A stretch of DNA of 64,000 bases from the NCBI GenBank assembly GCA_964350735.1, contig CAYGKO010000001.1, forward strand, positions 182,578-246,577, in the 5' to 3' direction. Shown here piece after piece: positions 9,158 to 40,206 of this stretch. The notes beneath the pieces are model-generated. The model was not told the DNA's origin and searched no databases. It worked only from the letters and a program-made list of their open reading frames with translations. The position numbers were made by a program, and so were the translations under genes. Source of the stretch: an uncultured Candidatus Saccharibacteria bacterium (GTDB lineage Bacteria > Patescibacteriota > Minisyncoccia > Phycocordibacterales > UBA918). The number at the start of each line of letters is the position of its first letter. Within the stretch, counting starts at the first letter, position 1.

Positions 9158-9169
9158 GATTTCGTGCAC

Positions 9170-9262
9170 TTACTTTTTTTGTTTGTTGCGGTAGTACCAG
9201 TATAGATACCAAAGTGCCGGGACTGGTACCAGTAAAAGAGCAATCAAATCGAGCGTTTGCAT
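9170..9262 (-). CDS. 30-aa hydrophobic membrane peptide
   Basis: MQTLDLIALLLVPVPALWYLYWYYRNKQKK is preceded by a strong SD, AAGGAGGTGA, 8 nt upstream. A terminator lies downstream. It is not in the ORF track because it is under 60 aa. Confidence 0.35.
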   Translation of the reverse strand: MQTLDLIALLLVPVPALWYLYWYYRNKQKK

Positions 9263-9422
9263 TCTGTTCTTCACCTCCTTTTTTACTGAGGGTAATTTAA
9301 CCCGATCACTATTTTATTCAAAAATAACGTGTATTTATATTGAATATAACTATATTTATCAACCTATAAATATAGTCTACAAAATTATTGAACATTTAGG
9401 GTAAAAGTGCTACTGTACATAA

Positions 9423-10178
9423 ATGGAAGATATTAAAGCTAAACTCATCCAGGTTGGTCTCACTGACAAAGAAGCTGCGGTGTATATTGCGCTTTTAGCC
9501 ACTGGCAAAACCACTGCTTATAATCTGGCTAAAAAAGCGGGATTGAAGATCTCTACGTCGTACGTCGTCTTGGAGTCACTGCGTGAGAAAGATTTAGTCA
9601 GCAAGATCCCAGACTCCAAACGTCAGCTATTTTTAGCCACTGATCCGACCTACTTCTTCGAACGACTGAATAGCAATGTGCATGCCTTGGAGACTGTCCT
9701 CCCCAAGCTGCAGTCACTCAGCCGGCGTAAAGAAGAGTCGAGTGTGTTGGTATATGAAGGCTACGCTGGGATAAAGGACGCTTTGGAGTATAAGTTCAGC
9801 GCGATGCGCGGCAAGACCTTCAAGGGTTTGTACTCTAGTTTGCCCGACCCAGACGAGAAATTACTGCGGGTAATGACTCGCTGGAGCGACAAATGTGTGA
9901 AAGCTGGCGTGGATACCCAAGTAATTGCTCCTGATACCGCAGACTCTAAGCGGTGGGTGCAAGATACTTTAGAAAAATACACGAAAGGACTTAAGCTCAT
10001 ACCAGAGAAACTATGGTCGCCAGAGATTTCAATTGAAGTTGGTGATGGGTTTGTGCGAATTATTGATACCAAAGAACTACAGGCTGTCGTAGTAGACAAC
10101 CCAAAGGTAGCTATGGCTTTAGAGCAGTTGTTTGCGATAGTGTGGGACGGGGTTGAGGGTAATGAGGTGACTAGTTAA
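9423..10178 (+). CDS. TrmB-family transcriptional regulator
   Basis: N-terminal wHTH LTDKEAAVYIALLATGKTTAYNLAKKAGLKISTSYVVLESLREKDLV is typical of TrmB. Confidence 0.6.
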   Translation: MEDIKAKLIQVGLTDKEAAVYIALLATGKTTAYNLAKKAGLKISTSYVVLESLREKDLVSKIPDSKRQLFLATDPTYFFERLNSNVHALETVLPKLQSLSRRKEESSVLVYEGYAGIKDALEYKFSAMRGKTFKGLYSSLPDPDEKLLRVMTRWSDKCVKAGVDTQVIAPDTADSKRWVQDTLEKYTKGLKLIPEKLWSPEISIEVGDGFVRIIDTKELQAVVVDNPKVAMALEQLFAIVWDGVEGNEVTS

Positions 10179-10840: not shown

Positions 10841-10938
10841 GGAATTTAGTAATGCCTTCACTTTCAAGCACTGCTGCGCATTAGTTGTGCATTACTACTA
10901 AACTCAACTAATAAAAAAGTATATAATATACATACTTT

Positions 10939-11601
10939 ATGGTTCGGAATGAAGAAAAGTACCAATTAGCAACACATTATCGCAAACAGGGTTTTACCTA
11001 TGCTGAAATAGCTAAGATCTGTGGGGTGAGTAAGAGTACGGTGAGTGCCTGGCTCGCTGGTAAGCGTTTTTCGAAGCAGGTGAAGCAGGATAACCAGGTA
11101 CGCGCCGGTAAAGCCAATGCTAAGCGAGTGGCTTTAGTTCAGAAAGCCCGGCAGACAGAACGGACTACTCGCTATAAAGAAGCAGTTCGTTCCGCTGAGA
11201 CTGAATACAAGCACTATAAGAGTAACCCGCAGTTTATCGCTGGCTTGATGTTGTACTTGGCTAAGGGTGATCACAATGATCCGTCACAAATTCGCCTGAC
11301 AGGGCAAGATATAACCACTCACCGCATCTTCCGAACGTTCCTAATGGAGTATTTAGGAGTAGAAAAGCAAGCGGTGCGATTTTGGCTCTTGTTGCCGAGT
11401 AATGTTTCAGAAAAGGCCACTCAAAATAGCTGGAGTAAAGTACTAAAGCTCCCTGCTGGCCAGTTCGGCAAGACGCAGGTTTTAAAACAGGAGGCCAAAA
11501 GATTGCACAATGGCACGGGAAATACTATAATCGGCAACACTGTTTTGAAGCACAAGCTCATCAAATGGATCGAGTTGGCAACAAAAGAGCTAAGTAAATA
11601 G
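10939..11601 (+). CDS. HTH domain protein
   Basis: N-terminal GFTYAEIAKICGVSKSTVSAWLAG is an HTH. The rest is basic and unassigned. Confidence 0.4.
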   Translation: MVRNEEKYQLATHYRKQGFTYAEIAKICGVSKSTVSAWLAGKRFSKQVKQDNQVRAGKANAKRVALVQKARQTERTTRYKEAVRSAETEYKHYKSNPQFIAGLMLYLAKGDHNDPSQIRLTGQDITTHRIFRTFLMEYLGVEKQAVRFWLLLPSNVSEKATQNSWSKVLKLPAGQFGKTQVLKQEAKRLHNGTGNTIIGNTVLKHKLIKWIELATKELSK

Positions 11602-11607
11602 TCATTG

Positions 11608-11678
11608 CGGCCTTGGTTAAGTGGTATAATGGGTCCTTGCCAAGGATCAGTCGGGGTTTCGATTACCCCAGGCCGCAC
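11608..11678 (+). tRNA. tRNA-Gly(GCC); no encoded CCA
   Basis: Hand-folded: acceptor GCGGCCT/AGGCCGC, anticodon stem GGTCC/GGATC, loop TTGCCAA, T arm GGGGT-TTCGATT-ACCCC. A hairpin terminator, CCCCCAGTAGGGGG plus a T-run, follows. Confidence 0.75.
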
Positions 11679-11802
11679 AAAACTTCCCCCAGTAGGGGGA
11701 TTTTGTGTGTTTAGAGACAGGGTGTTTGTACTCGTTGCCCCAAATTGAAAATTTGTCTATTTTGTAACCTTCAGCTCTGCAATCTGGTATCATAGGGTAC
11801 TT

Positions 11803-12954
11803 ATGGCACGAGTTGCGATTACGGAGTATGCGGCTAAAAAATTAGTCTTTGGTGATAGGTATCACGGGCTGACCGTTACGCCACAGAGTCTAGCTGATTT
11901 TTCGGTCCCCGCTGGTGATTACATTGTAAAAATTGACGTTGGGATCAAAAAACGAGGTAAACAAAGCTTAGTTCGACTTAACGTAGCTGCAAAAGATGTG
12001 CCTTCAGCAGCTAATGAGCTTTTTGCGCTTGGCTACGGTCGTTGTGTCGTGGAGGTGATGGTGCCACATAAAACAGATGCGGAGCGATATCTTTCACTCG
12101 ATGTACACCGCACTGGCTTGCAGTTGATCCACTCTGAAAAAGGCGGGGTGGAGATTGAGGCGGCGGCTGAAGCTGATATCAAGCGGACACTCGTACCTTT
12201 GCAGGAATTCTTGAGTGACACACCGTTGATCGAGATCGACGGTGTGTCACTCCCCTACTTACTCGAGCAGATGGCGCGGTATCACTTTTCGTTTATGGAG
12301 ATAAATCCCTATATTATCGCTGATAATACGTTGATTGCTCTTGATATGGCGGTTGAGATTGATTCAACTAAAGAAAATAAGCTGCCAGCGTGGGTACATG
12401 AACATATTTTGCATAAAAAAGCGGCCAGTGAGCAAGAGGCGCGGGTGCTTGAACAAGATGCGCGCACTCAAGCCGCCCTTAATTTACATACCCTTAATCC
12501 AGACGGTTCGATCTTGACCCTTTTGTCTGGGGGTGGCGCCAGTTTAGTCGGTCTCGATTCTCTCGTCACTGCTGGTTTACAAGCAGAGGTGATTAATTAT
12601 AGTGAGTATAGTGGCGCTCCGACACGCGACGAAACGGCTGCGTATGTCAGCACCCTCCTTGAAGTGTTGTTTAATTCTACCGCTAATACTAAAGTTATTT
12701 TGATCGCCGGTGGGGTGGCAAATTTTACTGACGTCCTGGCTACCTTCCAGGGAATTGTTGATGCGTTTACTGACAATCTTGAACAATTACAGGCGCAAAA
12801 CGTGTATGTCTGCGTCCGGCGTGGTGGTCCGAACCAAGAGAATGGCTTGGCCCACCTGCGTAACTGGCTTGATGAGCATGATATTCCTAATGATGTCCAC
12901 GACCCTTCCCTGTCGCTTGGTGAAGTTGGTAACTTGGTAAAAGCACATATATGA
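11803..12954 (+). CDS. aclB: ATP-citrate lyase beta-like subunit (ATP-grasp, SucC-like)
   Basis: Long collinear similarity to the ACLY N-terminal region: FMEINPY, LNPDGSILTLLSGGGASLV, NYSEYSGAPT, ILIAGGVANFTDVLATFQGIV, VCVRRGGPNQENGL. Confidence 0.7.
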   Translation: MARVAITEYAAKKLVFGDRYHGLTVTPQSLADFSVPAGDYIVKIDVGIKKRGKQSLVRLNVAAKDVPSAANELFALGYGRCVVEVMVPHKTDAERYLSLDVHRTGLQLIHSEKGGVEIEAAAEADIKRTLVPLQEFLSDTPLIEIDGVSLPYLLEQMARYHFSFMEINPYIIADNTLIALDMAVEIDSTKENKLPAWVHEHILHKKAASEQEARVLEQDARTQAALNLHTLNPDGSILTLLSGGGASLVGLDSLVTAGLQAEVINYSEYSGAPTRDETAAYVSTLLEVLFNSTANTKVILIAGGVANFTDVLATFQGIVDAFTDNLEQLQAQNVYVCVRRGGPNQENGLAHLRNWLDEHDIPNDVHDPSLSLGEVGNLVKAHI

Positions 12955-17438: not shown

Positions 17439-17482
17439 GGAAGTGGGGTTTGCTATACTGATACAAATTAAAATGCAGATCT

Positions 17483-18406
17483 ATGATCACCCACTATTTC
17501 CGAACTATAAAAGATGCTGAGCTTAAGGTGCTGGATGAGGCGCGGGCGGGGGTGTGGACACATGTGGTGAGGCCAACAGACGAAGAGCTGGCCGAGTTGG
17601 TGTCGCTGTATGCACTAGATGAGGCGATCTTAGAAGATGCTAAAGACTTCTTTGAAGTCCCACGTATGGAGCGTAGTCAGGGATCAACGTACTTCTTTAC
17701 CCGCTATCCGTATGATGAACAAGAAGAAGATGCTGAAACAGCACCGCTACTGATCATTATGGGGGAGTCGTTTGTACTGACCATCACGCTTCGGGATGTG
17801 CCACAATTTAAGAAGTTTGTGACGGGGAAGGAGGTGGTGCATACAACCCAGAAAGCAAAGTTTTTCATTCAGCTAATGACCGCCGTCACTACTTCCTTTG
17901 AGCAAAAGCTGGTGCGACTACGACGTTCGGTGCATCGTGATCGAGCGAAGCTGCGCGTGATCAGTAACCGTGATATCAAACGATTGGTTGATTATGAGCA
18001 CGAACTAAACGACATGATTAGTGCCGTGGTACCGACCAACGTGTGGTTGCAAACGGTAACCAAAGGGAACTACATGCAGCTTTATAATGACGATGTGGAG
18101 CTGATGGAAGACTTGATGATCGCCAACTCACAGCTAGTGGAGTCGGCCCGGTCGCTTTTGAAGACGATTCAAAATGTGCGTAATGCCACTGAGGCAATTT
18201 TGACGAACAATCTGAACGGCACGATTCGAACGCTGACCATTTTGACCATCTTGCTAACGATCCCAACAATTATTTCTTCACTCTACGGCATGAATGTTGC
18301 GTTGCCGCTCATGGATAACCCGCTAGCGTTTTGGTTGGTGATTGTACTGATCTTAGTGGTGGTGTCAGCGACCGTGTATTTCTTTAAACGTAATCAGTGG
18401 TTATAG
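17483..18406 (+). CDS. corA: CorA-family magnesium/cobalt transporter
   Basis: C-terminal two TM helices with the signature YGMNV (GMN motif). Confidence 0.7.
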   Translation: MITHYFRTIKDAELKVLDEARAGVWTHVVRPTDEELAELVSLYALDEAILEDAKDFFEVPRMERSQGSTYFFTRYPYDEQEEDAETAPLLIIMGESFVLTITLRDVPQFKKFVTGKEVVHTTQKAKFFIQLMTAVTTSFEQKLVRLRRSVHRDRAKLRVISNRDIKRLVDYEHELNDMISAVVPTNVWLQTVTKGNYMQLYNDDVELMEDLMIANSQLVESARSLLKTIQNVRNATEAILTNNLNGTIRTLTILTILLTIPTIISSLYGMNVALPLMDNPLAFWLVIVLILVVVSATVYFFKRNQWL

Positions 18407-28968: not shown

Positions 28969-29040
28969 AGATTTCTCTCAAGTATAGCAAGCAGGGCTAG
29001 AAATCGAACAGGATAAGTGCTAGAATATCGCCCACAGAAA

Positions 29041-29111
29041 CGCGGGATTAGTTAAATGGTATAACATCTGCCTTCCAAGCAGAGGTCAGGAGTTCGATTC
29101 CCCTATCCCGC
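29041..29111 (+). tRNA. tRNA-Gly(UCC); no encoded CCA; integration target
   Basis: Acceptor GCGGGAT/ATCCCGC, anticodon stem TCTGC/GCAGA with loop CTTCCAA, T arm AGGAG-TTCGATT-CCCCT. The 3' 26 nt overlap the integrase ORF. Confidence 0.75.
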
Positions 29112-30567
29112 ACATAGTTGAAAAATCAGCATTCTTAGGGGTCCTTGCGAGCATATCGTAAGGACTTTTAAGTTGTGGTTGAGCCATTTTCTTATCTTTG
29201 AGCAAGGAGTTCGAAAGTACCTCATAGGCCATTTCTCGTTTACGCTCTGGAATTGCTTTCAAATACCTAGATTTGGCTCTACTACTGGCTATAAATAGCT
29301 TTTTTGTACGTTCGAGAGTAACTAAAGGGTCTTGGGTATTTTGTTTGAGATTGTTGAGGGATTTTGTCAGTGCGATACGGCTATGTTTAATTTCTGCCTG
29401 CTTTGCCTCATACGTTTCTTTGTTGATGCTCTCAGCTAGATACGTATCAAGTAGTTTATTTTCACGGACTTTGAGTATATCCAATTCACGCTGTGTGTTT
29501 TCAAGATGAGTTGTGTCTAATTCTCCCTCATGCTCAAGTTTTTCCAAAGCTGCTTGGTACATGATTTCTATCAGCTCCTCATCAAAAGCAATATCATCAA
29601 AGATTGAGACAAATTGCTCTTCTAATTTCTCTTGGCGCAAGAATAGCCGTTTTTGGTCGCAGATACCTTTTCCATTAGTGCAGTGGTAGTAGATGTACGT
29701 TTTTTGTTTTTCAGCAGTGACAGCGCAGCCACAGACACCACAGGTGTATAAACCAGTAAGAGGGAAGACGTGTTTTTGAGTCCGTGGCTTAGAACCGCCG
29801 GTCATGACCGTTTGGCATTGGTCGTAGAGGTCTTTAGTGACGATGGTATCAAAGCTCGCTTCGTAGTATTTTCCTGAATACAGTATCACACCGTGATAAA
29901 TAGGATTCTTGAGAATGCGTTGAATCGGCCCACAGTGTACTTTCTTGCCAGAGCGGGTGCGCATGCCTTTGTCATACATGTGGCCAGCTAATTCACGGAT
30001 GCTGTAGAGACCAGTAGCGTAATGCTCATACATCATGCGGACATACTCACCACGTACAGGGTCAATGTATAAAGTCTTGTCTACTTTGTTATTGAGATAG
30101 CCAAAGGGTGCGTTACAAGGCCAACCACCCTGACTGAGTTTTTGACGATTACCCCGCTTCACGTTTTCGGATAAATCACGAGAGTATTGGTTAGCCATAC
30201 CAAGCTCCACCGCCATCATAAGGACGTTGTCTGAGGGTAGGTATTCTTTCTCGTAGGTCTGGATGCTTTTGAGAACGTTGCGTTGTAGTAGGTCAATGAT
30301 TAGTCCGCCATCAATAAAGTTGCGAGCCAGTCTGTCTAGTTTCCAGCAGAGAAGACCGTCAGCTTTGCCAGCTTGAATTTGCTGCATAACGTTATTGAAT
30401 ACTGGACGCCCGACAGTCTTGGCGGACATACTTTCATGGTAGACGGCGGTAATTTCAATACCAAGGAGAGCAGCTGTTTCTGTTAGCTCACGCTCTTGTG
30501 CATCGAGGGACTGGATTTGTCTGTCCTCAGACTCTTGTGACTTTCGGCAGTAGAGGATGTATTTCAT
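29086..30567 (-). CDS. large serine recombinase (integrase)
   Basis: N-terminal resolvase catalytic domain (YCRKSQESED...SLDAQ...DRLARN), recombinase domain, Cys-rich zinc ribbon (CGVCGC...HC) and coiled-coil tail. 493 aa. Confidence 0.8.
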   Translation of the reverse strand: MKYILYCRKSQESEDRQIQSLDAQERELTETAALLGIEITAVYHESMSAKTVGRPVFNNVMQQIQAGKADGLLCWKLDRLARNFIDGGLIIDLLQRNVLKSIQTYEKEYLPSDNVLMMAVELGMANQYSRDLSENVKRGNRQKLSQGGWPCNAPFGYLNNKVDKTLYIDPVRGEYVRMMYEHYATGLYSIRELAGHMYDKGMRTRSGKKVHCGPIQRILKNPIYHGVILYSGKYYEASFDTIVTKDLYDQCQTVMTGGSKPRTQKHVFPLTGLYTCGVCGCAVTAEKQKTYIYYHCTNGKGICDQKRLFLRQEKLEEQFVSIFDDIAFDEELIEIMYQAALEKLEHEGELDTTHLENTQRELDILKVRENKLLDTYLAESINKETYEAKQAEIKHSRIALTKSLNNLKQNTQDPLVTLERTKKLFIASSRAKSRYLKAIPERKREMAYEVLSNSLLKDKKMAQPQLKSPYDMLARTPKNADFSTMCGIGESNS

Positions 30568-30580
30568 ATGCTATTCATAG

Positions 30581-31413
30581 TTAGCGTGTCTTTAGACTAT
30601 ACAAACTCCGCATTTCAGACAACTGTTCAGGACTCAGATTGTATGTTGCACAAAAAGTTGGGTTTTCTATAACAGGACGTTTTTTTGATGGTTTGGTAAT
30701 GTATGCGTATAGTGATTTATGGTCAGCGAGATAGTCCATAATCTCTCCCGCTATGTGTTCATGAGAAATAACCTCTGGTTTGTATAGACCTCGACTGGAG
30801 AAATATTTCTTCCTACCGACCAATCGTTTATCGAGCGCATCCTTAGTCATGTATTTTGTCATATATCTACCTACGTTCGGTATTTTGCTGACATTCTTTT
30901 TCTTGATATGGCCATGCTCCCAAATAGAAGCAAATTCTCCAGTATTAAATTCATGCCTAGCGTTAATCTTCGGGAGATTAAAGAAGACTGCATGATAGTG
31001 GACTGCTCCACGTTTTTGAAACTCTGGGACTGCAACATATTTTACAATTGATTCTTTAGTGCCGTACGTATGATAATTCAAGCGTTTAATATAATTTGTG
31101 AAGAGAGTATTTGCAGTCGCTATATCTTTAATGTTTTCATGAATCGTGTAGGTTAGAAATTGAGGTTGAATTATTACTTCAAACTCATCCAGCCACATAC
31201 GAGAATTAGCGTTTATTAGCCTAATGAGTGCATTTCTTGTACGACTCAAAGAACTTTCACTGGTGACTTGTTCAGCCAACATTCTCCTTTTACGGTATGG
31301 TGCCTGTTTTTTACTTGAAAGAAGGTCGTAGCCGATTGCTTTAGTAAACTGCTGGGCCTCAACAATGTGACCTGAAATAATTATTTTGTAGTGACTGACT
31401 CGTGGTTTTGCCA
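30581..31413 (-). CDS. rep: rolling-circle replication initiator (HUH endonuclease, phage CRI/Rep-type)
   Basis: HUH motif HYHAVFF and catalytic-tyrosine motif VGRYMTKYMTK (YxxKYxxK). Start reset to MAKPRV. Confidence 0.6.
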
Positions 31414-31746
31414 TAAATAGTTTCGAATTATGTGTATATAAAATCAAGTCACTTTCTGCTCCGCAGAAAGGCCGGCATCGGCCTTTCGCCTCACCCCACG
31501 AGGGGGCGAGGGCGAGACGAAAGCCGCTCCCGACCCACCCCAACCGTTTGAGGAAAAGAAAAAGATATATATAGTTGCGAGAACGAGGCTAGGTGTAGCT
31601 GCGCTTGTTCGCAGGAAATAGACACCGCATGTGTATCTAACATGTACCGCTTATACCGTGTGACTAATTCATTACTAAATTCCATTAACTACAGAATACA
31701 AAAAGACCCCGAGCTAACTCGGGTCAAAGTAGGGTTAGTTTTAACA

Positions 31747-32430
31747 CTAATTTAGGTACTTAGGATTAACCTTTATCGCACCATTCTCAGTGCTTCCAAA
31801 ATCTAGAAATGCACTAATCTTGTCTTCAGTATGTTTCTGTACAGCTTTATTTAAATTTTTACACGCGTTGATATATGTACTAGCTTCAACGTCTGAGTCA
31901 TAAACACCTTCGTTACGAAGTTCAGCATAAGAATATTCATTTTCTGTACCGTTTTCAAAAATATGTTTCAAAATAAAGTGGTGGACAGGTTTATTTTGTC
32001 TTCGAGAAACTGGAATAGTGAGACCTCTCACACTTAGTACGCTGTTTTCAATATCATACTCAAGCTCTTTGGTACTAATCTCCTTGAGAGGTACACCATT
32101 ACTTAGCTCACGATAAATTTTCCAAGGGTTGCCTAAAACCCACAACTCAAAACGTAAGTCTGGCTCTTCTAGCTGTCTAGGTGTAATTTCACCGTGCTCA
32201 ATTAGCTGCATTTCATTCTCGTGATCAACTGGTTCTGATGAGTACCGAAACTCAAATACTTCTAAGGGAGCCAATTCAGCTAGAGTAGTATTGAAGCTGT
32301 GGAAGTTCATACCAACACCTTGAATATCTAGGTCCCTAATGTAAATCACTGGAAAATCAGACTCCTCCTTTTCATTTTGATATAGCTTGCTGATGATTAC
32401 CTCAAGCACTTTGATGAGTTTTTCACCCAT
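31747..32430 (-). CDS. hypothetical protein, co-directional downstream of the XRE regulator
   Basis: 227 aa and AT-rich. A terminator hairpin lies downstream at about 31705-31730. Confidence 0.4.
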   Translation of the reverse strand: MGEKLIKVLEVIISKLYQNEKEESDFPVIYIRDLDIQGVGMNFHSFNTTLAELAPLEVFEFRYSSEPVDHENEMQLIEHGEITPRQLEEPDLRFELWVLGNPWKIYRELSNGVPLKEISTKELEYDIENSVLSVRGLTIPVSRRQNKPVHHFILKHIFENGTENEYSYAELRNEGVYDSDVEASTYINACKNLNKAVQKHTEDKISAFLDFGSTENGAIKVNPKYLN

Positions 32431-32435
32431 AGTGT

Positions 32436-32642
32436 CTATACTAAATCTTTAATATCAACTTTTAAGGCTTTGGCGAATTTCTCCATACTAGTAAGAGTGA
32501 TGTTTTTCTCACCACGCTCAATCATTCCAACATAGGTGCGGTGTACTTTCGCTAGCTCGCCAAGACGTTCTTGAGACAGGTCACGCTCATCACGTAAACA
32601 TCGAACGCGCTTACCAAACTTTTTGAGTAGAGGTGATTTCAT
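32436..32642 (-). CDS. XRE-family HTH transcriptional regulator (Cro/CI-like)
   Basis: LRDERDLSQERLGELAKVHRTYVGMIERGEKNITLTSMEKFAKAL is a canonical HTH_XRE. Confidence 0.7.
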   Translation of the reverse strand: MKSPLLKKFGKRVRCLRDERDLSQERLGELAKVHRTYVGMIERGEKNITLTSMEKFAKALKVDIKDLV

Positions 32643-32697
32643 TACATACAGCGTATGTAATTGCTAACTTTGATTCTACATACTATAGTTAGCACAT
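32643..32697. promoter_or_regulatory. divergent promoter/operator region with inverted repeats TACATAC-AGC-GTATGTA and TGCTAACT...AGTTAGCA
   Basis: Seen directly between the XRE gene and the GIY-YIG gene. Confidence 0.35.
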
Positions 32698-32976
32698 ATG
32701 CATTGCTACGTGTACATAGTTGAGTGCTCAAATGGAGGACTCTATACTGGAATAACTAAGAATTTACGTAAGAGATTAAACCAACACAATGGTTTTCTGA
32801 AAGGTGGAGCGTATTACACGCGTATGCATCGACCGGTTAAATTTGTTCATATTGAGCGTTATTCAAGTAGGAAATTATCAAGAGAGCGTGAATTGGAGAT
32901 ACAATCATGGGAGCATGATGCAAAAATTGGCCTGATTGCAGGAACATCAAAAGAGCAAATCATCTCGTCTATTTAA
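32698..32976 (+). CDS. GIY-YIG nuclease family protein (small, UPF0213-like)
   Basis: CYVYIVECSNGGLYTGITKNLRKRLNQHN carries the GIY...YIG motifs. 92 aa. Confidence 0.6.
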   Translation: MHCYVYIVECSNGGLYTGITKNLRKRLNQHNGFLKGGAYYTRMHRPVKFVHIERYSSRKLSRERELEIQSWEHDAKIGLIAGTSKEQIISSI

Positions 32977-33001
32977 TATTGTTGACAGCGAAGGCACATA
33001 G

Positions 33002-34252
33002 TTGCAATATATCTATATGGCAACAGGCTCTATTGAAAAAAATGAAACTAGAAAGGGAGTGACGGAATTTTTTTATGTACTAAAAGAAGGGGATTCTGAG
33101 TTGCACAGGAATAAGATATTTATCGTAGATACAGTAAAATCACAAGTAAGGATGTTTCCGACAAATGCCGGCATCCCAGAAGTTGTTTTTGAAAACAGAA
33201 CTAAAGTGCCTCTAGCGCTTGTTACCGATAAGGCAAAATTTATAGCTGGTAGTTTTATTCAATATAGATTGACTAAGGAAAATATAACAATAAAAAAGAT
33301 TGTTATTGATAAAGGAATTAAAGATAGGATTGATAAGAAAACAGGAGTTTTATACCTAGAATATGAAAAACTTTTAAAGTTTAAAAAAAGACTTGCAAGA
33401 ATAACCCAGGATGCAAAGGATGATAAGTCACTAGAAGCTGATTTCTATGTTCATGATATTTTGCCTGAACACTTTAATGATCCCGATGGTGTAGGAAATT
33501 CAGTTTCAAAAAAGTTATCGAGTATATTCGACAATCTAACAGAAGATATTATTGAACATATTCCCAGAAAAAATGTCGACGAGTTATTTGAGTTTGTTAG
33601 CACTATCTTGGATAAACGGTACAAAACAGCTAAAGATAAAAAACGCCTATTGGAGTTTGTAAGAATTAAAGTTAATGAAAAACCCATTGAAGAACTAATA
33701 GGTGAATTTGAGAAAAACATTAAGGATGTTGTATCTGAAAGTGATTGGTCTAAGTTTATTAAACGTAATCTATTTTTGATTGACCCTAATTACGTTAAGC
33801 ATTACCCAGAACTTGGTGTGACTCTTGGTATTAAAATTCGTAAGGTTGATTTTGGATTGCTCGATGTTCAATCAAACTTAGATATTTTCGAAATAAAGAC
33901 AGACAGGACTCAATTGCTTGCAACAGGAGAAGACAGGGGTAATCATTATTGGAGTACGGCTGCTATAAAGGCAATTACCCAGGCAGAAAAGTATTTGTAT
34001 AATGCTGAAAGAAATGCAGACTCGTTAGAGAAGGCTCTTTTAAGAGAGACAGCTGATGAGGTTAATGTTGTAAGGCCTAGAGTTATACTTTTAATGGGTA
34101 ATAGCAGGCAACTTAAAACAAAAAATCAGAAAGAAGATTTTAGGGTTTTAAGAAAATCGCTAAAAAATATTGAGATTGTCTTGTATGACGAATTATTAAG
34201 TAAACTAACTGGTCTGAAAGATAAAAAATCTTTGTTTGGAAGTAATGAGTAA
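33002..34252 (+). CDS. Shedu-like (DUF4263) putative PD-(D/E)xK nuclease with a unique N-terminal domain
   Basis: C-terminal VDFGLLDVQSNLDIFEIK (D...E-x-K core) and the terminal NIEIVLYDELL motif are recalled as typical of DUF4263. About 32% GC. Lies 26 bp downstream of the GIY-YIG gene. Confidence 0.4.
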   Translation: MQYIYMATGSIEKNETRKGVTEFFYVLKEGDSELHRNKIFIVDTVKSQVRMFPTNAGIPEVVFENRTKVPLALVTDKAKFIAGSFIQYRLTKENITIKKIVIDKGIKDRIDKKTGVLYLEYEKLLKFKKRLARITQDAKDDKSLEADFYVHDILPEHFNDPDGVGNSVSKKLSSIFDNLTEDIIEHIPRKNVDELFEFVSTILDKRYKTAKDKKRLLEFVRIKVNEKPIEELIGEFEKNIKDVVSESDWSKFIKRNLFLIDPNYVKHYPELGVTLGIKIRKVDFGLLDVQSNLDIFEIKTDRTQLLATGEDRGNHYWSTAAIKAITQAEKYLYNAERNADSLEKALLRETADEVNVVRPRVILLMGNSRQLKTKNQKEDFRVLRKSLKNIEIVLYDELLSKLTGLKDKKSLFGSNE

Positions 34253-34275
34253 ACTTATAATAATGTACTGAAAAT

Positions 34276-34923
34276 ATGAATATAAACGACATCTACCTTA
34301 AATATAGAATTAATAAAGGTTTACGAGAGCATATGGTCCGAGTGGCTGCTGTTGCTCAGCTTATCTGTGATAAGTCCACCGTTGAGCTTGATGCCAAAAA
34401 CATAGTTACTGCGTGTCTTCTGCATGATATGGGTAACTTAATTAAAGCTAAGATGGACAGCATGCCAGAATTGTATGAGCCGGAAGGTGTAGCTTACTGG
34501 ACACAAGTGCAAGCTGAGATGATAGAGAAATATGGTGCTGATGAGCATACAGCCACTGTAGATATTGTAAACGAGATTGCTCCAGGAGATGAAGTTTTGC
34601 ATTATGTTTTTGACGCTATCGGTACAGAAAATACTGCCAAGGTCCACGTAGATGAGTCATTGGGTGCTAAAATTGCTACATACAGTGATATGCGCGTTGG
34701 TCCTTTTGGAATCATCAGTATAAAAGAGAGAATGGATGACCTTAGAGTCAGATATATTTCTCGGAATAAGCCTGGATTTTCAGCAGAAGATATCGACCAA
34801 AGAGAACAAATGCTCGAAGATATCGAAAATGTAATATTTGCCAGCTCTACTATTACCGCAAGCGATGTGACAGATGAGTCAACGCAGTTGCTACAAGAAA
34901 ACCTTCTCAATTGGGAGATCTAA
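34276..34923 (+). CDS. HD-domain phosphohydrolase
   Basis: H..H (HMVRVAAVAQ) and HD (ACLLHDMG) motifs. Confidence 0.55.
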   Translation: MNINDIYLKYRINKGLREHMVRVAAVAQLICDKSTVELDAKNIVTACLLHDMGNLIKAKMDSMPELYEPEGVAYWTQVQAEMIEKYGADEHTATVDIVNEIAPGDEVLHYVFDAIGTENTAKVHVDESLGAKIATYSDMRVGPFGIISIKERMDDLRVRYISRNKPGFSAEDIDQREQMLEDIENVIFASSTITASDVTDESTQLLQENLLNWEI

Positions 34924-34934
34924 CGCTGTAAATA

Positions 34935-34963
34935 GGTTCAAACATCGTCCCGCAAACCGCACA
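34935..34963 (+). repeat. repeat R1 (GGTTCAAACATCGTCCCGCAAACCGCACA), tRNA-3'-end-like, plus downstream hairpin
   Basis: Copy 1 of 3 direct repeats. It begins 12 nt after the HD gene stop. Confidence 0.5.
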
Positions 34964-35082
34964 CGAGATTTAAGCGCCAGCAATGGCGCTTTTGCTGTTT
35001 GAGAGTTGAGAATAATATTGACTACACAGCAATATTATGCTATAATCCTATTCAGGAATTCATCAAGACATAGGAGGTTCTG

Positions 35083-35643
35083 ATGAAAGTAATGTCAATC
35101 ACTGGCGCTTCTGGTGTTGGTAAATCGACTCTTGAAAAAGCATTAGTCGCGCACTTTGGAGGCGGGAGAGTCAGGACAATTACGACTCGACCACCAAGGG
35201 AAGGTGAAACTTCGTCAGATTATGATTTCCAGACCAGGGAATCATTGATTGGCCGCACCGACTTACTCTGGAATGTTGAAATTCATGGAAATCTTTACTC
35301 TGTGGCTGAATCTGAATTTGATAAAGCCGCGAGCGAAACAGGTGGATTTGCATTTGTTTGCATAACGCCTGAACGCCATGATTTTCTGTCTGATTACTTC
35401 AGGCCTAAAGGTGTGCGTACTATTCCAGTTCATTTGGTTAGCCCAGGTAATGTGGAATTAGAACGTAGACTAAGAGCTCGCGGTGAATCTGAAGAGGCGA
35501 TTCTGAAGAGAATCGACGATTCTAGAGAGTTTGAAGCAAACGCTTCTAAGGTTGAAAGATTGAACTTTGTTCAGCCTGATACCCCGGAGGTTGTGTTTGC
35601 TGAAGTTGTACGACTGTACCATGACGCCAACACCCTGAAATGA
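35083..35643 (+). CDS. guanylate kinase-like nucleoside monophosphate kinase
   Basis: P-loop ITGASGVGKST, the TTRPPREGE..DYDF motif of Gmk, and RRLRARGESEEAI. Confidence 0.55.
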   Translation: MKVMSITGASGVGKSTLEKALVAHFGGGRVRTITTRPPREGETSSDYDFQTRESLIGRTDLLWNVEIHGNLYSVAESEFDKAASETGGFAFVCITPERHDFLSDYFRPKGVRTIPVHLVSPGNVELERRLRARGESEEAILKRIDDSREFEANASKVERLNFVQPDTPEVVFAEVVRLYHDANTLK

Positions 35644-35699
35644 AGACATCCTGTCTGAATTTGGGGTGTTTTCTTTTGTATTTGAGTTATTATTGATAC

Positions 35700-36107
35700 A
35701 TGGAAAAAATACCAAGAATAGGGGTTGGTGTCATCATTACAAAAGACAATAAGGTTTTATTAGGGCAGCGTAAGAATGCACACGGCACCGGTAGCTGGTG
35801 CCCACCGGGGGGACATTTAGAGTTTATGGAGACCATCGAAGACTGCGCTCGTCGAGAAACTATGGAAGAGGTGGGAGTGAAAATTAAAAATATTCAGAAA
35901 CCTGTTTTTACGGAAGACTTCTTTAAAGAAGAAGATAGACACTACATAACCATGGTTGTGACAACCGAATGGGATTCAGGCGAACCAAAATTAATGGAGC
36001 CAGATAAATGTGAACAATGGGATTGGTTTAATTGGGATGAGTTGCCGTCACCACTCTTTTTACCTATGCAGAATCATATTGACCAAGGCTATAATCCTTT
36101 TCAATAA
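35700..36107 (+). CDS. NUDIX hydrolase
   Basis: Nudix box GGHLEFMETIEDCARRETMEEVGV. Confidence 0.6.
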   Translation: MEKIPRIGVGVIITKDNKVLLGQRKNAHGTGSWCPPGGHLEFMETIEDCARRETMEEVGVKIKNIQKPVFTEDFFKEEDRHYITMVVTTEWDSGEPKLMEPDKCEQWDWFNWDELPSPLFLPMQNHIDQGYNPFQ

Positions 36108-36109
36108 AA

Positions 36110-36137
36110 GTTCGAACATCGTCCCACAACCCGCACA
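36110..36137 (+). repeat. repeat R2 (GTTCGAACATCGTCCCACAACCCGCACA) running into a 14-bp-stem hairpin
   Basis: Copy 2. It starts 3 nt after the NUDIX stop. The hairpin's 3' arm, TGCGGGATAGGGG, is a 13-nt reverse-complement match to the tRNA-Gly(UCC) 3' end. Confidence 0.5.
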
Positions 36138-36327
36138 ATACAATTTGCCGCCTTCGGGCGGCTTTTGTATTGTGCGGGATAGGGGTGCAGCTTTTCGGAG
36201 AAAAGCGTTGCACGAATCGAAAAGCTTTTGAGACAGATTCGACCAAAGGGAGAATATGTCCAAAAGGTGTACTGCTCCTGTAAGGAGAGATTCTCCAATC
36301 TCAAAATATAATGATATTCTTACAATT

Positions 36328-36954
36328 ATGATTTCAGTAGCCATACAAGGTGCAGGTGGAAAATTAGGTTCAAAAATTGCGGAACATTTAGAACGTTCTG
36401 ATAATTTTAAGTACGTTGGTCCAATCACACGAGAATCAGATGTTCCTGACTGCGATGTGGTTGTTGATGTTTCTGGGGCTGAAGGCACTAAAGCTCTTAT
36501 TTCTAAACTGAATGGGCAAAAATTACTTATAGGGTCTACCGGTGATTTACCCGTAGACATGTTGGAAAGTTACGCACATCAGGCAGCAGTGCTGACCGCA
36601 CCAAATTTTTCAATTGGTATGAGGATTTTATATAAACTTTTACAAAATATTGAACCCTCAAAGTGTAGTGGATTTGAGAAGGTGATTGATGATGTTCACC
36701 ATATTCATAAAATAGACTCCCCAAGTGGTACAGCCTTAAAGATGCAAACTATTCTGAAGGAGAACAATATCGATGTATGTATAAAAAGTGAACGTTCCGC
36801 AGAGGTGTTAGGAGATCACTCATTAGTGCTTCAAAATAAAAATGAGCGAATCAGGTTGTCTCATGAAGTTTTGAACAGAGATGTCTATGCGGAAGGTTGT
36901 TTAGAATTAATTTCTGAATTAGTCACTTTGGACAAGGGTCTACACATTAGATAA
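36328..36954 (+). CDS. dapB: 4-hydroxy-tetrahydrodipicolinate reductase-like (DapB family)
   Basis: MISVAIQGAGGKLGSKI (NAD-binding), DDVHHIHKIDSPSGTAL (the HHxxK-DAPSGTA signature) and a C-terminal match to DapB. About 37% GC. Confidence 0.55.
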   Translation: MISVAIQGAGGKLGSKIAEHLERSDNFKYVGPITRESDVPDCDVVVDVSGAEGTKALISKLNGQKLLIGSTGDLPVDMLESYAHQAAVLTAPNFSIGMRILYKLLQNIEPSKCSGFEKVIDDVHHIHKIDSPSGTALKMQTILKENNIDVCIKSERSAEVLGDHSLVLQNKNERIRLSHEVLNRDVYAEGCLELISELVTLDKGLHIR

Positions 36955-36958
36955 AAAA

Positions 36959-36986
36959 GTTCGAACATCGTCCCGCAAGGCACACA
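36959..36986 (+). repeat. repeat R3 (GTTCGAACATCGTCCCGCAAGGCACACA)
   Basis: Copy 3. It starts 5 nt after the dapB-like stop. Confidence 0.5.
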
Positions 36987-37309
36987 ACTTAATTTGACAA
37001 AAAATATAGAACCTGATATTTTCAAGTCATGCAACGAACTGCAATACAAATGAATTGGCGCCACACTCGATATTCTCGTCGAGCGGCCTTTGTGTTGTAG
37101 TTTGTAACTCCTTCCCCATATCATTCTAAATTCTAGAAGACAAGATCCGCTCCCTGAGGAGCGGTTTTTGTTGCCCAAGGTTGGGAAGAACAATCATAGA
37201 ACCTTGAAAGGAATTGAAGATATCTACGATCAAAGTCATCTAGAATGACTTACACGGCTTTCGTATAGCTCGCAAAAATCGGGCTTCAAAAACCCAAAGG
37301 AGAAAGATC

Positions 37310-37663
37310 ATGTCAGTTATCCAATGTTACGACTTTAAATTTTTGGGGACAGTAATAAATCTACTAAACCAGAAATCAACTGATCAGTCATCTGTGACAA
37401 CGACTTTACTAGTTACAGATGAGGAGATAGAAAGAAGTGCAAACATATGGAGCGGTTTGGATTACTGGGTCTACACGCTACAGTCACAGACTGGTGGTTC
37501 AGTAAAATTTCATTCTGAAAGGCGCTTCTTGCGTAAAGGAGATAAGATTAAAGTCACGTGTCAGCAAATACAGGTTGATCAAGGAGCGATCTACACAACA
37601 GTCATAACGCATATCAGCGGAGAAGGAGAAAACAATGACTTACCAACCTACGTTCACCACTAA
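37310..37663 (+). CDS. hypothetical protein (117 aa)
   Basis: Overlaps the next gene by 29 nt in another frame. Confidence 0.3.
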   Translation: MSVIQCYDFKFLGTVINLLNQKSTDQSSVTTTLLVTDEEIERSANIWSGLDYWVYTLQSQTGGSVKFHSERRFLRKGDKIKVTCQQIQVDQGAIYTTVITHISGEGENNDLPTYVHH

Positions 37664-38417
37664 GTTCAAATTTCGTCCCGATTTGGCATTCCATATCGGG
37701 GTGGAGCGAGAATTTTTTGTTGCGAACAAACAGGGTCTCATTGTCCCTGAAGCACACCGCGTTTTGGAGCGGATAACCAACCCACTTCCAGATGCAGGAT
37801 CGTTCAGTTACGAATTGTCTGCGTGTCAGATTGAATCACAATCATTGCCGACAGATTCGTTAGATGCAGTATGGTCACAGCAAGTAAAGCTTGAAGATGA
37901 GCTTGATAGTGCACTAGCTGCTTGTGACTTACAGCGACTATGTCAGGAAGTCGCGCCAGACGATATGTCACTAGCGGTTTATTCGGATCCAGCTGGTCGG
38001 TATCAGCGGATTGCTACCGAAATGCCTCGTGAAGTGTTGCAGGCGGCCTGCCAGGTGGCTGGCACGCATTTCCACATTGGCATGCCGAGTGCAGAAATTG
38101 CACTCCAGGTGTACAACCGAGTTATCGCCCATTGTGACGAGCTTTGTCACATTGGTGATAATAGTAACGGTAAGCGAATGCGATTGTATGGAATCGTGGC
38201 ACCTGGCTATCGACCGGTGGCGCATGAGTCGTGGAATGCATTTGAAGTGTATGCAAAACAGCACGGATTCTATGAGAACCCACGTGATTGCTGGCACATG
38301 ATTCGTCTCACACTCCACGGCACAATCGAGTTTCGTAACTTTGGTGTCACCGAGTCGGTAGACGATATCATTAAGTGGGCTTATCGTTGTCGTGAACTAT
38401 GTCTTCACTATTCCTAA
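37635..38417 (+). CDS. carboxylate-amine ligase, glutamate-cysteine ligase family 2 (YbdK-like), short form
   Basis: HIGVEREFFV and GTHFHIGM match GCS2 signatures. 260 aa. Confidence 0.45.
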   Translation: MTYQPTFTTKFKFRPDLAFHIGVEREFFVANKQGLIVPEAHRVLERITNPLPDAGSFSYELSACQIESQSLPTDSLDAVWSQQVKLEDELDSALAACDLQRLCQEVAPDDMSLAVYSDPAGRYQRIATEMPREVLQAACQVAGTHFHIGMPSAEIALQVYNRVIAHCDELCHIGDNSNGKRMRLYGIVAPGYRPVAHESWNAFEVYAKQHGFYENPRDCWHMIRLTLHGTIEFRNFGVTESVDDIIKWAYRCRELCLHYS

Positions 38418-38450
38418 ACAAAACAAACACGGGGATGTGTAAACTTTCCC

Positions 38451-39299
38451 GTGTTATCTATACTAAAAAATAACCCTATGACTAACTCAATCACTACATT
38501 ACAAACAGATGCTCCTGGTCCAGCAGTTGCTATATTTGCCGGCGTACACGGTAATGAAAAAGCAGGGATTAGAACCATCGACTATTTACGACAAAATTTA
38601 AAACTCATAAACGGTACGGTGTATCTTGTCTATGCGAATCCTCGTGCGATAAAACAAGATGTGCGATTTACTGAAAAGAACTTGAATCGTTGTTTTCAAC
38701 TATCAGCCGAAGTGGGTGATACCTATGAAGAAAAGCGCGCAGTTGCGTTGATGAAATTGCTTGATTCTTGCGATGCTCTTTTAGATTTACACGCATACAA
38801 TGAACCTTATGGAGAGGCAACACCATTCGTGATTAGCGAGCCGAACGCAAAAGATATCGTTAAAACATTTGACGTATCCTATGTGATCAATGGTATTGAT
38901 GCTATTGAAAAAGGAGGTACTGACGGGTATATGTCGAACCAGAATAAGATTGGTATTTGTGTTGAGTTGGGCGCCATCGGAAAACCAGAGGAGTATGTGG
39001 ATTTAGGTATTCAAACCTCATATCAATTTCTCCAATATTTTGGAATGGTTGATAACACATACAAACCTTCAAATACACCACAAACTATCTTACAAGTCCA
39101 AAGTAAGTATGTTCGAAAATATGAAAACTTTTCCTTTGCAGCAAACTTTATGACGTTTGATGAAGTGTCAGCGGGACAGCTTATTTGTACTGATGGTGGA
39201 AAAGAAGTGCGGGCAGAAACGGACGCTTATTTGTTGTTTCCCGGGGGAAATAATCCGGTCGGAGTAGAAGCGTATGTAACCGCAGTAGGCGTAATATAA
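38451..39299 (+). CDS. succinylglutamate desuccinylase/aspartoacylase (AstE/AspA) family zinc hydrolase
   Basis: AIFAGVHGNEKAG is the HGNE motif. A DLH motif follows. Confidence 0.5.
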   Translation: MLSILKNNPMTNSITTLQTDAPGPAVAIFAGVHGNEKAGIRTIDYLRQNLKLINGTVYLVYANPRAIKQDVRFTEKNLNRCFQLSAEVGDTYEEKRAVALMKLLDSCDALLDLHAYNEPYGEATPFVISEPNAKDIVKTFDVSYVINGIDAIEKGGTDGYMSNQNKIGICVELGAIGKPEEYVDLGIQTSYQFLQYFGMVDNTYKPSNTPQTILQVQSKYVRKYENFSFAANFMTFDEVSAGQLICTDGGKEVRAETDAYLLFPGGNNPVGVEAYVTAVGVI

Positions 39300-39332
39300 T
39301 GATTGATTTTAGGCATTTGCTACAATATTCCT

Positions 39333-39911
39333 ATGGCTAAACTTTACTTTTCTTACGCAGCTATGAATGCTGGCAAATCAACAGCATTACTGCAGGTGGC
39401 ATATAACTACGAAGAGCGGGGGATGCGCGCATACTTACTAACCTCGGCGGTGGATGATCGGGCTGGAACGGGAGTGATTTGGTCTCGGATTGGTGCAAAG
39501 CGTGAAGCAGAGGTTTTTACTGACGAGGATAATCTATTCGCGAAAATTTCTGAGGAACACAAGCTGTCACCGATTGCCTGTGTCTTGATTGATGAAGCCA
39601 ACTGGTTAACGAAAGAGCAGGTAGAGCAGTTAGCAGTAGTGGTAGATACTTTGCGGATTCCGGTGATGTGCTATGGCTTACGGACTGATTTCCAGGGGAA
39701 TACCTTTACTGGTTCGCAGCGGCTGCTGGCGATCGCTGACGAATTACGGGAGATCCGTACGATTTGTCACTGTGGCCGCAAAGCCACCATGATTCTGCGG
39801 TACAACGAAGCCGGCGAGGCCGTAGTTGATGGACCACAGCTTTTAATTGGAGATAATGATACTTACACGTCAGTGTGTCGAAATCATTGGAAGGAAGCGC
39901 TTCAAAAGTAA
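39333..39911 (+). CDS. tdk: thymidine kinase
   Basis: MAKLYFSYAAMNAGKSTALLQ and a C-terminal zinc ribbon CHCG...CRNHW. Confidence 0.75.
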   Translation: MAKLYFSYAAMNAGKSTALLQVAYNYEERGMRAYLLTSAVDDRAGTGVIWSRIGAKREAEVFTDEDNLFAKISEEHKLSPIACVLIDEANWLTKEQVEQLAVVVDTLRIPVMCYGLRTDFQGNTFTGSQRLLAIADELREIRTICHCGRKATMILRYNEAGEAVVDGPQLLIGDNDTYTSVCRNHWKEALQK

Positions 39912-39924
39912 AATAGTACACAAA

Positions 39925-40130
39925 CAAAAAGAGCCCGGCTGGGGCTCTCTTTGTTTGTGTGATGGGAAATAGCGGGTGTATCCCTTTATATTTCCACATA
40001 GCGCTTACCAGATAAATCTGGTAGATACCTCCGCTACTCCTATATTTTAGCACGACAGTTCTGAAAGCCCCTGTGGAAAAGAAACAGCCGGCCCCGTAGG
40101 GGCCGGCTGTTTCTTTTAGAAGAAAATATT
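39925..40130. terminator. two hairpin terminators (CACAAACAAAGAGAGCCCCAGCCGGGCTCTTTTTGTTTGTG; GAAACAGCCGGCCCCGTAGGGGCCGGCTGTTTC) between convergent tdk and hup
   Basis: Seen directly. These coordinates are approximate. Confidence 0.5.
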
Positions 40131-40206
40131 TATTACTTCACTATTGATCGAACGAGGAGGCGAAAATATTTATATTTTCAGTTCCGAGTGAGTGAAAATA
40201 GCAAAT

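Follow-up and report, generated by a model that had tools for sequence, protein, structure and literature searches.

A probable plasmid-like element with a large serine recombinase and a rolling-circle initiator, integrated at tRNA-Gly(UCC) in a Patescibacteria genome

The element and its attachment sites

The 64-kb stretch of contig CAYGKO010000001.1 analysed here (the window) contains, at the 3' end of a tRNA-Gly(UCC) gene, a gene encoding a large serine recombinase (LSR, an integrase), followed by the gene of an HUH-type rolling-circle replication initiator (Rep) and by regulatory and cargo genes. We consider that these genes probably form the integrated copy of a small plasmid-like mobile element of about 5.85 kb, in a genome of Patescibacteria of the Paceibacteria type. 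The features on which this proposal is built are the following.

29042-29112/3, plus strand: tRNA-Gly(UCC), the integration target (ARAGORN, tcc; Rfam tRNA model, 68.8 bits)
29086-30567, minus strand: LSR (integrase), 493 aa (PF00239, PF07508, PF13408; phrog_95)
29090-29145, no strand: left attachment site (attL), made of the tRNA T-loop and acceptor 3' strand (B arm), the core GCACA at 29110-29114 and the P' arm TAGTTGAAAAATCAGCATTCTTAGGGG
30581-31414, minus strand: HUH rolling-circle initiator Rep, 277 aa (PF23343, phrog_3419, conserved motifs)
34936-34963, plus strand: predicted right attachment site (attR) and right end, made of the P arm GTTCAAACATCGTCCCGCAAACC and the core GCACA

Profile searches with the LSR matched the domains Resolvase (PF00239, 4e-20), Recombinase (PF07508, 9e-13) and Zn_ribbon_recom (PF13408, 2e-8), and the integrase family phrog_95 (4e-80); the closest solved structure is that of SprA from SPbeta (2e-15). 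The motif that carries the serine nucleophile, YCRKS (Y6-C-R8-K-S10), is kept in 7/7 full-length homologues, in which a cluster of cysteines (C276, C279, C281, C296 and C303) is also invariant. Judged from these motifs, the protein has the catalytic domain of the family and its recombinase and zinc-ribbon domains with a C-terminal extension. The tRNA gene supplies the stop and the last 7 codons of the LSR open reading frame (ORF). This overlap had been recognised in the first-pass annotation, which put it at 26 nt; its length is 27-28 nt including the stop. The Rfam scan of the window matched tRNAs only, and no other RNA family.

The insertion itself is documented by a pair of related loci, one from a metagenome contig (L006), whose Rep is 79% identical to that of the window, and one from a Ca. 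Nomurabacteria genome (L028). Their flanks agree with 100% identity in the 1,661 bp compared on one side and with 99.98% identity in the 4,406 bp compared on the other. L006 is the occupied site and L028 the empty one: precisely where tRNA-Gly(UCC) ends, L006 contains 5,304 bp that L028 lacks. The junctions have only the 5-nt core GCACA in common, at the 3' end of the tRNA:

attB (L028): ...TTCGATTCCTCTCACCC-GCACA-GATACAATGAACC...
attL (L006): ...CACCC-GCACA-AAGTATAAAAATCAGCATTCTTAGGGG...
attR (L006): ...AAAAAAGTTCGAACATCGTTGAATAGCGT-GCACA-GATACAATG...

Short attachment (att) sites and a precise, conservative insertion, which are characteristic of the LSR family, are thus documented for this sister element, and would hold for the window copy by analogy. 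The first-pass annotation had proposed that an element with a serine recombinase and an HUH Rep is integrated site-specifically at the 3' end of tRNA-Gly(UCC), which is borne out by the domains, by the motifs and by the L006/L028 pair; the latter also provides the exact junctions whose absence would have spoken against the proposal, if only for the sister element. The test that it suggested for the att sites, a search for a second copy of the tRNA 3' end, cannot work: no repeat of the 29-nt tRNA 3' end is present in the window at up to 3 mismatches, because the sites of serine recombinases share only the 5-nt core.

The far end of the element is a conserved P arm, GTTCGAACATCGT-N10-GCACA, and the near end (P' arm) is the 3' coding end of the LSR gene; in attL of the window, the P' arm TAGTTGAAAAATCAGCATTCTTAGGGG doubles as the coding sequence of the LSR C-terminus. 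In 8 elements inserted at 4 different tRNAs, the elements cease to be homologous where the tRNA ends, and the discriminator base is in every case followed by CA. Therefore the crossover most likely occurs inside GCACA, in the CA after the discriminator base, and tRNA-Gly(UCC) appears to be intact after integration and wholly host-encoded. GTTCGA occurs 23 nt from the core in the P arm and, in the T-loop of the tRNA, 18 nt from the core. This difference of 5 nt may correspond to the offset described, in phage serine integrases, for the attP and attB motifs recognised by the zinc-ribbon domain.

The LSR ORF crosses the att core, so that the C-terminal tail of the protein is predicted to depend on the state of the element: it reads STMCGIGESNS in the integrated form and would read STMCGLRDDV in a circle closed at 34963. 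The tails differ among elements, and the integrated form of L006 stops one codon past the core. This dependence is probably a by-product of the position of attP rather than a regulatory device.

The P-arm motif occurs in three copies only in the 64 kb (at 34936, 36110 and 36959), all on the strand of the tRNA and downstream of it. The first of these, at 34936-34963, lies 3' of an HD-domain gene, and its motif, its spacing (23 nt) and its core are identical to those of the verified attR of L006. Because of this match, the window element is most simply taken as 29115-34963, that is, 5,849 bp. The end at 34260 given in the first-pass annotation is the end of the Shedu gene, and the element as we delimit it runs on to 34963. 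Its layout (recombinase, Rep, small ORF, DNA-binding protein, XRE, GIY-YIG) is that of the elements in L006 (5.3 kb) and L004 (about 4.6 kb), in which one or two cargo genes follow the GIY-YIG gene before the P arm is reached. The attP site of the window element would then read GTTCAAACATCGTCCCGCAAACC-GCACA-TAGTTGAAAAATCAGC, and the empty attB site would read TTCGATTCCCCTATCCC GCACA CGAGATTTAAGCGCC.

The arrangement is shared by a whole family. In 13/13 distinct Rep loci examined, Rep is followed by the LSR, whose ORF extends into a tRNA gene encoded on the other strand; on the contigs long enough to include this tRNA, the target is Gly-tcc, Arg-tcg, Lys-ctt, Gln-ctg, Gln-ttg or Trp-cca. The window locus was compared with 80 related species-level genomes that contain the gene of the flanking protease, and tRNA-Gly(UCC) is in view near the protease in 66 of them. 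The same genes in all relatives would have argued for a resident locus; the outcome speaks for mobility. An intact LSR with Rep is present at tRNA-Gly(UCC) in a single genome of the 66 (L072, on the same contig as L004), and one further genome (L037) has an LSR that is fragmented and frame-shifted. Between the window and L072, the proteins of the element are 68-90% identical (56% for a 64-aa ORF), compared to 47% for the flanking protease and 58% for the neighbouring MscS protein. The best relatives of the flanking trypsin-like protease, recovered in an alignment-based scan, are at most 52% identical and belong to metagenome-assembled genomes of Kaiserbacteria, Nomurabacteria and Paceibacteria. 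Alignment-based scans recovered relatives that single-protein scans did not: the latter returned no close relatives of the protease in genome contigs, nor of Rep in viral contigs.

Replication, regulation and cargo

The first-pass annotation had also described the gene next to the recombinase as an HUH Rep with the motifs HYHAVFF and YMTKYMTK, and both motifs are indeed present. The true start of the protein is Met44 of the listed ORF, which gives a protein of 277 aa (30581-31414) identical to the database protein P0001. It matches PF23343 (REP_ORF2-G2P) at 1.3e-19 and 70.7 bits, for a cut-off of 27.8, as well as phrog_3419. The residues H139 and H141 (HxH) and the two tyrosines Y184 and Y188 (YxxxY), whose loss would have made a functional Rep doubtful, are invariant in 47 homologues, down to 33% identity; the motif FxTxT (F86/T88/T90) is invariant or nearly so in the same 47-sequence alignment. 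Rep has 745 homologues, and the few that come with a source name are from Patescibacteria (Nomurabacteria, Paceibacterota). A sequence search of the PDB with Rep gave no match.

The nearest named relatives of Rep are the initiators of two rolling-circle plasmids, pHT926 from Brevibacillus (1.8 kb) and pGTG5 from Geobacillus (1.5 kb), with 38-40% identity and E-values down to 2e-41; both plasmids have ACTTGATTATAG just upstream of rep. Relatives from phages (inovirus-like, Ralstonia filamentous, microvirus and plectrovirus) are less close, with 36% identity (5e-22) at best. Two features of the region upstream of rep suggest an origin of replication.

31423-31452, minus strand: candidate double-strand origin, block GTGACTTGATTTTATATACACATAATTCGA, near-invariant in 8 elements and immediately upstream of the rep ATG
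31453-31545, minus strand: conserved GC-rich hairpin region beside the nick motif (consensus fold, 6 compensated pairs)

The motif ACTTGAT, like the block GTGACTTGATTTTATATACAC, is near-invariant upstream of rep, where the hairpin also lies. We propose CTTG/AT (31443-31448 on the plus strand; site sequence GTGACTTGATTTTATATAC; the slash marks the cut) as the putative nick site of Rep, because the motif resembles CTTG/ATA, the nick site of phiX174 and of the plasmids of the pC194 type. Folded as single-stranded DNA, the GC-rich hairpin region has an energy of -31.4 kcal/mol (z = -3.9); it may be a Rep-binding element or a single-strand origin.

The other features of the element, between the putative origin and attR, are the following.

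31491-31685, minus strand: conserved small ORF upstream of rep, 64 aa, called in sister elements
31747-32430, minus strand: 227-aa protein with a probable OmpR/PhoB-like winged-helix C-terminal domain (fold matches of a low-confidence model)
32436-32642, minus strand: XRE-family repressor, 68 aa (PF01381, 3e-13)
32643-32697, no strand: divergent promoter/operator region with the palindrome TTACATAC-AGC-GTATGTAA, read from the sequence
32698-32976, plus strand: small protein with a GIY-YIG nuclease domain, 92 aa (PF01541, 4e-17)
32994-33004, plus strand: 11-nt repeat GCACATAGTTG, equal to the core and the first 6 nt of P', between the GIY-YIG and Shedu genes
33002-34252, plus strand: Shedu defence nuclease SduA, cargo (PF14082, 4.6e-25)
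34276-34923, plus strand: HD-domain protein, cargo (PF01966, 4e-7)

The small ORF has counterparts of 63-76 aa at the same position in L002, L004, L006, L008, L011 and L103, and matched no family in PHROG or in further profile searches; it is a candidate for the recombination directionality factor. The 227-aa protein has no Pfam or PHROG match. Its C-terminal domain (about 105 aa) is common to 215 proteins. The model of this protein, built from a shallow alignment (2 sequences), has a pLDDT of 59; its best fold matches are DNA-binding domains of the OmpR family, with E-values from 0.02, and none reached E = 0.001. On the basis of this model, the protein is most likely a DNA-binding accessory protein or regulator, not a capsid or structural protein.

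The XRE repressor and the AT-rich cargo mentioned in the first-pass annotation are real. The XRE protein is 90% identical in L072. The GC content is 0.33-0.39 in the cargo and 0.33-0.43 across 29-35 kb, compared to about 0.46 in the flanks. The divergent promoter/operator region is conserved with L002 and L004. The GIY-YIG gene adjoins the XRE gene in L004 and L006 and lies inside the verified insertion of L006; it belongs to the element in the tRNA-Gly group. The Shedu protein has the DUF4263 nuclease domain by which SduA is defined, and 18 PADLOC models of SduA match it, the best at 1.3e-25.

The 11-nt repeat GCACATAGTTG at 32994 was considered as an alternative attR, which would give an element of 3.9 kb, and this possibility was dropped: the sister element ends at a P arm, and there is nothing similar, nor any equivalent of the repeat after the GIY-YIG gene, in L004 or L006. 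By chance, the window should contain only about 0.03 copies of this sequence. The repeat may be what is left of a junction, and mark the Shedu and HD genes as a separately acquired module, or else be a pseudo-site.

Probable older remnants and history of the locus

The region downstream of attR contains the two other copies of the P arm, and we infer that the window holds one complete element followed by two older cargo remnants, which extend to about 36986.

35083-36137, plus strand: older remnant, with a guanylate-kinase-like gene, a NUDIX gene and the second P arm and core (36110-36137)
36138-36185, plus strand: ancestral downstream flank of the tRNA (B') with a terminator hairpin (inverted match, ATACAAT)
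36256-36986, plus strand: third remnant, with a DapB-like gene and a degenerate P arm (36959-36986; motif search, repeats)

The NUDIX gene and its arm are conserved in L006 and L028. The sequence ATACAAT, which follows the second arm, is common to the B' arm of the attB site of L028, and the distal arm of the hairpin is a perfect 15-nt inverted match to 29100-29114, the 3' end of the tRNA. The segment 36138-36185 can be read as the original downstream flank of the tRNA, which the insertions would have displaced by 7 kb. An alternative reading of the inverted 15-nt copy of the tRNA end at 36171, as a site of inversion, was set aside: the copy fits better as the distal arm of the terminator hairpin that originally followed the tRNA.

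Arrays of P arms with GCACA, with no recombinase or Rep nearby, are seen in relatives downstream of tRNA-Gly(UCC) (L041:5736-8231, L083:323-2217) or of tRNA-Gln (L103:1-600). In L041 four nearly identical arms stand in a row, each of which closes a single-gene cassette (two NUDIX, two of unknown function); L083 has three P arms and L103 has two. The simplest explanation of these arrays is repeated integration followed by the loss of the core genes, as in tycheposon islands. In L095 (82-340; QZGF01001148.1), the chromosome carries a junction of P arm, GCACA and P' arm, behind which no more than the final ~60 codons of a recombinase gene are left; this junction is an internal, attP-like relic, of the kind that tandem copies would leave on decaying.

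The structure of these arrays leads us to a more speculative proposal, which we put forward tentatively. The P-arm/GCACA sites may form a working gene-capture platform in Patescibacteria, similar to an integron: LSR-Rep elements would integrate repeatedly at tRNA 3' ends and shed their core, leaving single-gene cassettes that an incoming recombinase could remobilise in trans. It includes, with the same reserve, the possibility that elements integrate into sites which are already occupied and whose junction on the tRNA side still resembles attB.

Decay is also seen in relatives that retain the recombinase. In L002, a complete Nomurabacteria genome, an IS200/IS605-type Y1 transposase insertion accompanies a recombinase split into two ORFs (8983-9423, 10847-12311). 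In L037 (148-1844), beside tRNA-Gly, the recombinase has multiple frameshifts and there is no Rep.

The island segment at tRNA-Gly(UCC) lies between an HU gene and the trypsin-like protease gene (28969-40206 in the window). In the relatives L015-L094 it occurs in both orientations, 50 window-like and 16 inverted, with sizes between about 0.3 kb and over 10 kb. The segment is a hotspot of long standing, both variable and invertible.

Last, a conserved structured element of about 130-155 nt is found downstream of tRNA-Gly genes (tcc and gcc) in L002 (4278-4434), L004 (7485-7620), L076 (~6590-6760 and ~17470-17640) and L089 (~9420-9600), and a truncated remnant of it lies at 36165-36255 in the window. 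In its outer stem, the 3' end of the local tRNA is represented twice, by an inverse copy paired to a direct one; the core consists of a conserved hairpin, GGGGTCGCGTAGCACA..TTTGG...CAAAATA.TGATGCGAAGGTG, that shows compensatory changes. The element has no match in Rfam.

Nature of the element and its significance

The working of the plasmid-like element that we propose would be as follows. The LSR would join the attP site of a circular form (P arm GTTCGAACATCGT-N10, the core GCACA and the P' arm in its own 3' coding end) to the 3' end of tRNA-Gly(UCC). Because the crossover would occur within GCACA, the tRNA would stay intact and the LSR ORF would now end in tRNA sequence. Excision, which would need a directionality factor, would free the circle. 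The two-tyrosine HUH Rep would then nick CTTG/AT just upstream of its own gene, and the circle would be copied by rolling-circle replication. The XRE repressor and the winged-helix protein would control this module, and the GIY-YIG, Shedu and HD genes would be carried as cargo. Repeated integrations, each followed by loss of the recombinase/Rep core, would have left the cargo genes that end in the P arms at 36110 and 36959.

Several observations weigh against this proposal, or against parts of it. When the flanking protein of the window was used to look for a sibling strain whose site is empty, the only contig retrieved was that of the window itself; because its own lineage offers no empty site, the choice of 34963 over 36137 or 36986 is made by analogy with the sister element. 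The assignment of the nick site is based solely on the resemblance of the motif. Seven short Rep-bearing contigs were considered as circular episomes; terminal overlap was found in none (0/7), they appear to be fragments, and no circular form was detected. The attP pattern has no match in viral contigs, and its single match in metagenomes is a chromosomal relic of tandem copies, in which the P-core-P' junction precedes just the tail of a recombinase gene. No protein can be recognised as the recombination directionality factor (the 64-aa ORF and the 227-aa protein are no more than candidates), and the element encodes no transfer machinery. Moreover, the window copy could be immobile despite its intact ORFs, because its relatives in L002 and L037 are decaying.

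This last point can be taken further, and the window copy regarded as a remnant that has lost its mobility: a genomic island, now fixed, with an inactive recombinase and Rep, whose genes persist only because decay has not yet reached them. The decay of the relatives (the split LSR with an insertion sequence in L002, the fragmented LSR of L037, the arms-only arrays of L041 and L083) and the lack of a detected circular form are what one would expect. On the contrary, no core ORF of the window copy is shortened or has lost its catalytic motifs, the GCACA core and the spacing of the arms are retained at both att sites, and the near-isogenic presence/absence pair L006/L028 shows recent movement of the family. 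For these reasons we find it rather unlikely that the copy is a remnant.

The family of Rep raises the question of filamentous phages. The element could be a satellite of an inovirus-like phage with single-stranded DNA, like RS1 of CTXphi, in which case it would retain no functions other than Rep, repressor and integration, and the DNA made by rolling-circle replication would be packaged by the Zot and coat proteins of a helper. PF23343 includes inovirus and plectrovirus initiators, and the XRE protein matches the RstR model, weakly (4e-8) and below the cut-off of that model. An inovirus-like sequence of 6445 bp (L129; IMG/VR 3300027373_000054) combines a Zot-like protein, a Rep 35% identical to that of the window and a protein whose C-terminal domain is that of the 227-aa ORF. 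These matches show that the Rep/regulator module is common to true filamentous phages and to integrase-bearing elements. However, the loci examined showed neither a helper phage nor a Zot gene around any of these elements, a packaging signal was not identified, the closest named relatives of Rep are plasmids (2e-41) and not phages (5e-22), and IMG/VR contains no close relative of Rep, the best match being 42% identical. A satellite is thus distinctly unlikely, in our opinion.

Alternatively, Rep could act mainly as a relaxase at an origin of transfer (oriT) and the element be an integrative mobilizable element (IME), transferred as single-stranded DNA through the conjugation or secretion pore of a helper. 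There are precedents: the relaxases of streptococcal IMEs are often relatives of rolling-circle initiators, the integrase of some is of the serine type, and both their tandem accretion and the combination of an integrase with a Rep-like protein are already known (PMC5357655). Among the relatives of the window element, L096 has four genes with a T4SS_pilin domain (2826-4874) within a few kb of a related Rep-LSR element at tRNA-Lys; these genes may belong to that element or to the host. Neither a coupling protein, nor VirB4, nor any other conjugation gene occurs in or beside the elements examined, a helper system was not seen in these loci either, and Rep has the full set of replicative motifs together with an origin-like region, as in small plasmids, which makes an IME improbable.

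As for an integrated inovirus-like prophage, which the first-pass annotation had offered alongside an integrative rolling-circle plasmid, it has in its favour only a Rep family common to filamentous phages and is hardly tenable: the 5.85 kb are fully accounted for by the LSR, Rep, the 64-aa ORF, the winged-helix protein and the XRE, GIY-YIG, Shedu and HD proteins, and no ORF of the element has a PHROG or Pfam match to a Zot-like ATPase (pI), although the same library readily found Zot in L129 (1e-17), nor is there a coat or adsorption protein among the ORFs of at least 60 aa, each of which is assigned to another function or to a DNA-binding class. The integrative plasmid, the other half of that suggestion, fits the data. 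The element is a replication and regulation module as found in small plasmids and filamentous phages, associated with a serine integrase and devoid of virion genes.

Several known systems resemble the plasmid-like element in part. Like the actinomycete integrative and conjugative elements of the pSAM2 type, it is integrated at a tRNA 3' end and combines a repressor, a Rep and an integrase in a small element, with a circular excised form and HUH rolling-circle replication as the model. Unlike it, pSAM2 has a tyrosine integrase with Xis and an FtsK-like transfer gene; the element has an LSR and no FtsK/Tra domain, and its Rep falls under the cut-offs for RepSA (33.1 vs 34 bits for PF20199, 18.4 vs 700 for NF041486). 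The plasmids pHT926 and pGTG5 have the nearest named relatives of Rep and the motif ACTTGATT just upstream of rep, but they are free Firmicutes plasmids of 1.5-1.8 kb, without integrase, repressor or cargo. Filamentous phages and RS1 of CTXphi share with the element the PF23343 Rep, the XRE-type repressor beside rep and chromosomal integration. They are integrated by the host XerCD at dif, whereas the element has its own serine recombinase, acts at a tRNA, and lacks the genes for Zot, coat and adsorption.

The large serine integrases of phages (SprA of SPbeta, TP901-1, Bxb1, phiC31) resemble the LSR in their architecture of three domains, in their short att sites of minimal identity and in the position of their gene at the edge of the element. 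Here, however, the integrase ORF spans attP, so that its last codons change on integration, and the partner module is a plasmid-type Rep instead of a phage genome. In the SCC (staphylococcal cassette chromosome) elements of staphylococci, the insertion, likewise catalysed by LSRs (Ccr), occurs where a conserved gene has its 3' end, and some units of tandem composites lack a recombinase. SCC differs in that it has no replication initiator and targets rlmH, and the NCBIfam models of Ccr score 48-88 bits with the LSR, for cut-offs of 700-900. The tycheposons of Prochlorococcus are also small integrase and replication elements of streamlined genomes, with tRNA targets, adaptive or defence cargo, stacking and remnants (10.1101/2020.12.28.424599). 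They mostly have a lineage-specific tyrosine recombinase (an LSR in a minority), replication genes of the primase/helicase type and partial-tRNA flanks; in contrast, the element has an LSR and an HUH Rep, no primase or helicase, and sites that share only 5 nt.

Full-text searches of the literature found no description of these elements of Patescibacteria, and the words recombinase, tRNA, plasmid and rolling are absent from a 2025 survey of horizontal transfer in this group. Few mobile elements of the Patescibacteria (also called candidate phyla radiation, CPR) have been characterised, and there are almost no genetic tools. The large family to which the window element belongs pairs a plasmid-type rolling-circle replicon with a tRNA-targeting serine integrase, and its attB, attP, attL and attR sites can be written exactly from a natural empty/occupied pair, which offers, for these organisms, a minimal replicon that can be tested and a means of site-specific integration.

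The locus further hints at a route by which streamlined genomes receive, through shuffling, defence genes (Shedu, toxin-antitoxin pairs, DUF2726 proteins) and small genes of metabolism. Across dozens of species, tRNA-Gly(UCC) is a variable island with stacked remnants, much like the tycheposons of Prochlorococcus. If the tentative gene-capture proposal were true, this would amount to an integron-like system that relies on tRNA genes and a serine recombinase, and the element would be the first native replicon and integrase toolkit for a phylum that is hard to manipulate.

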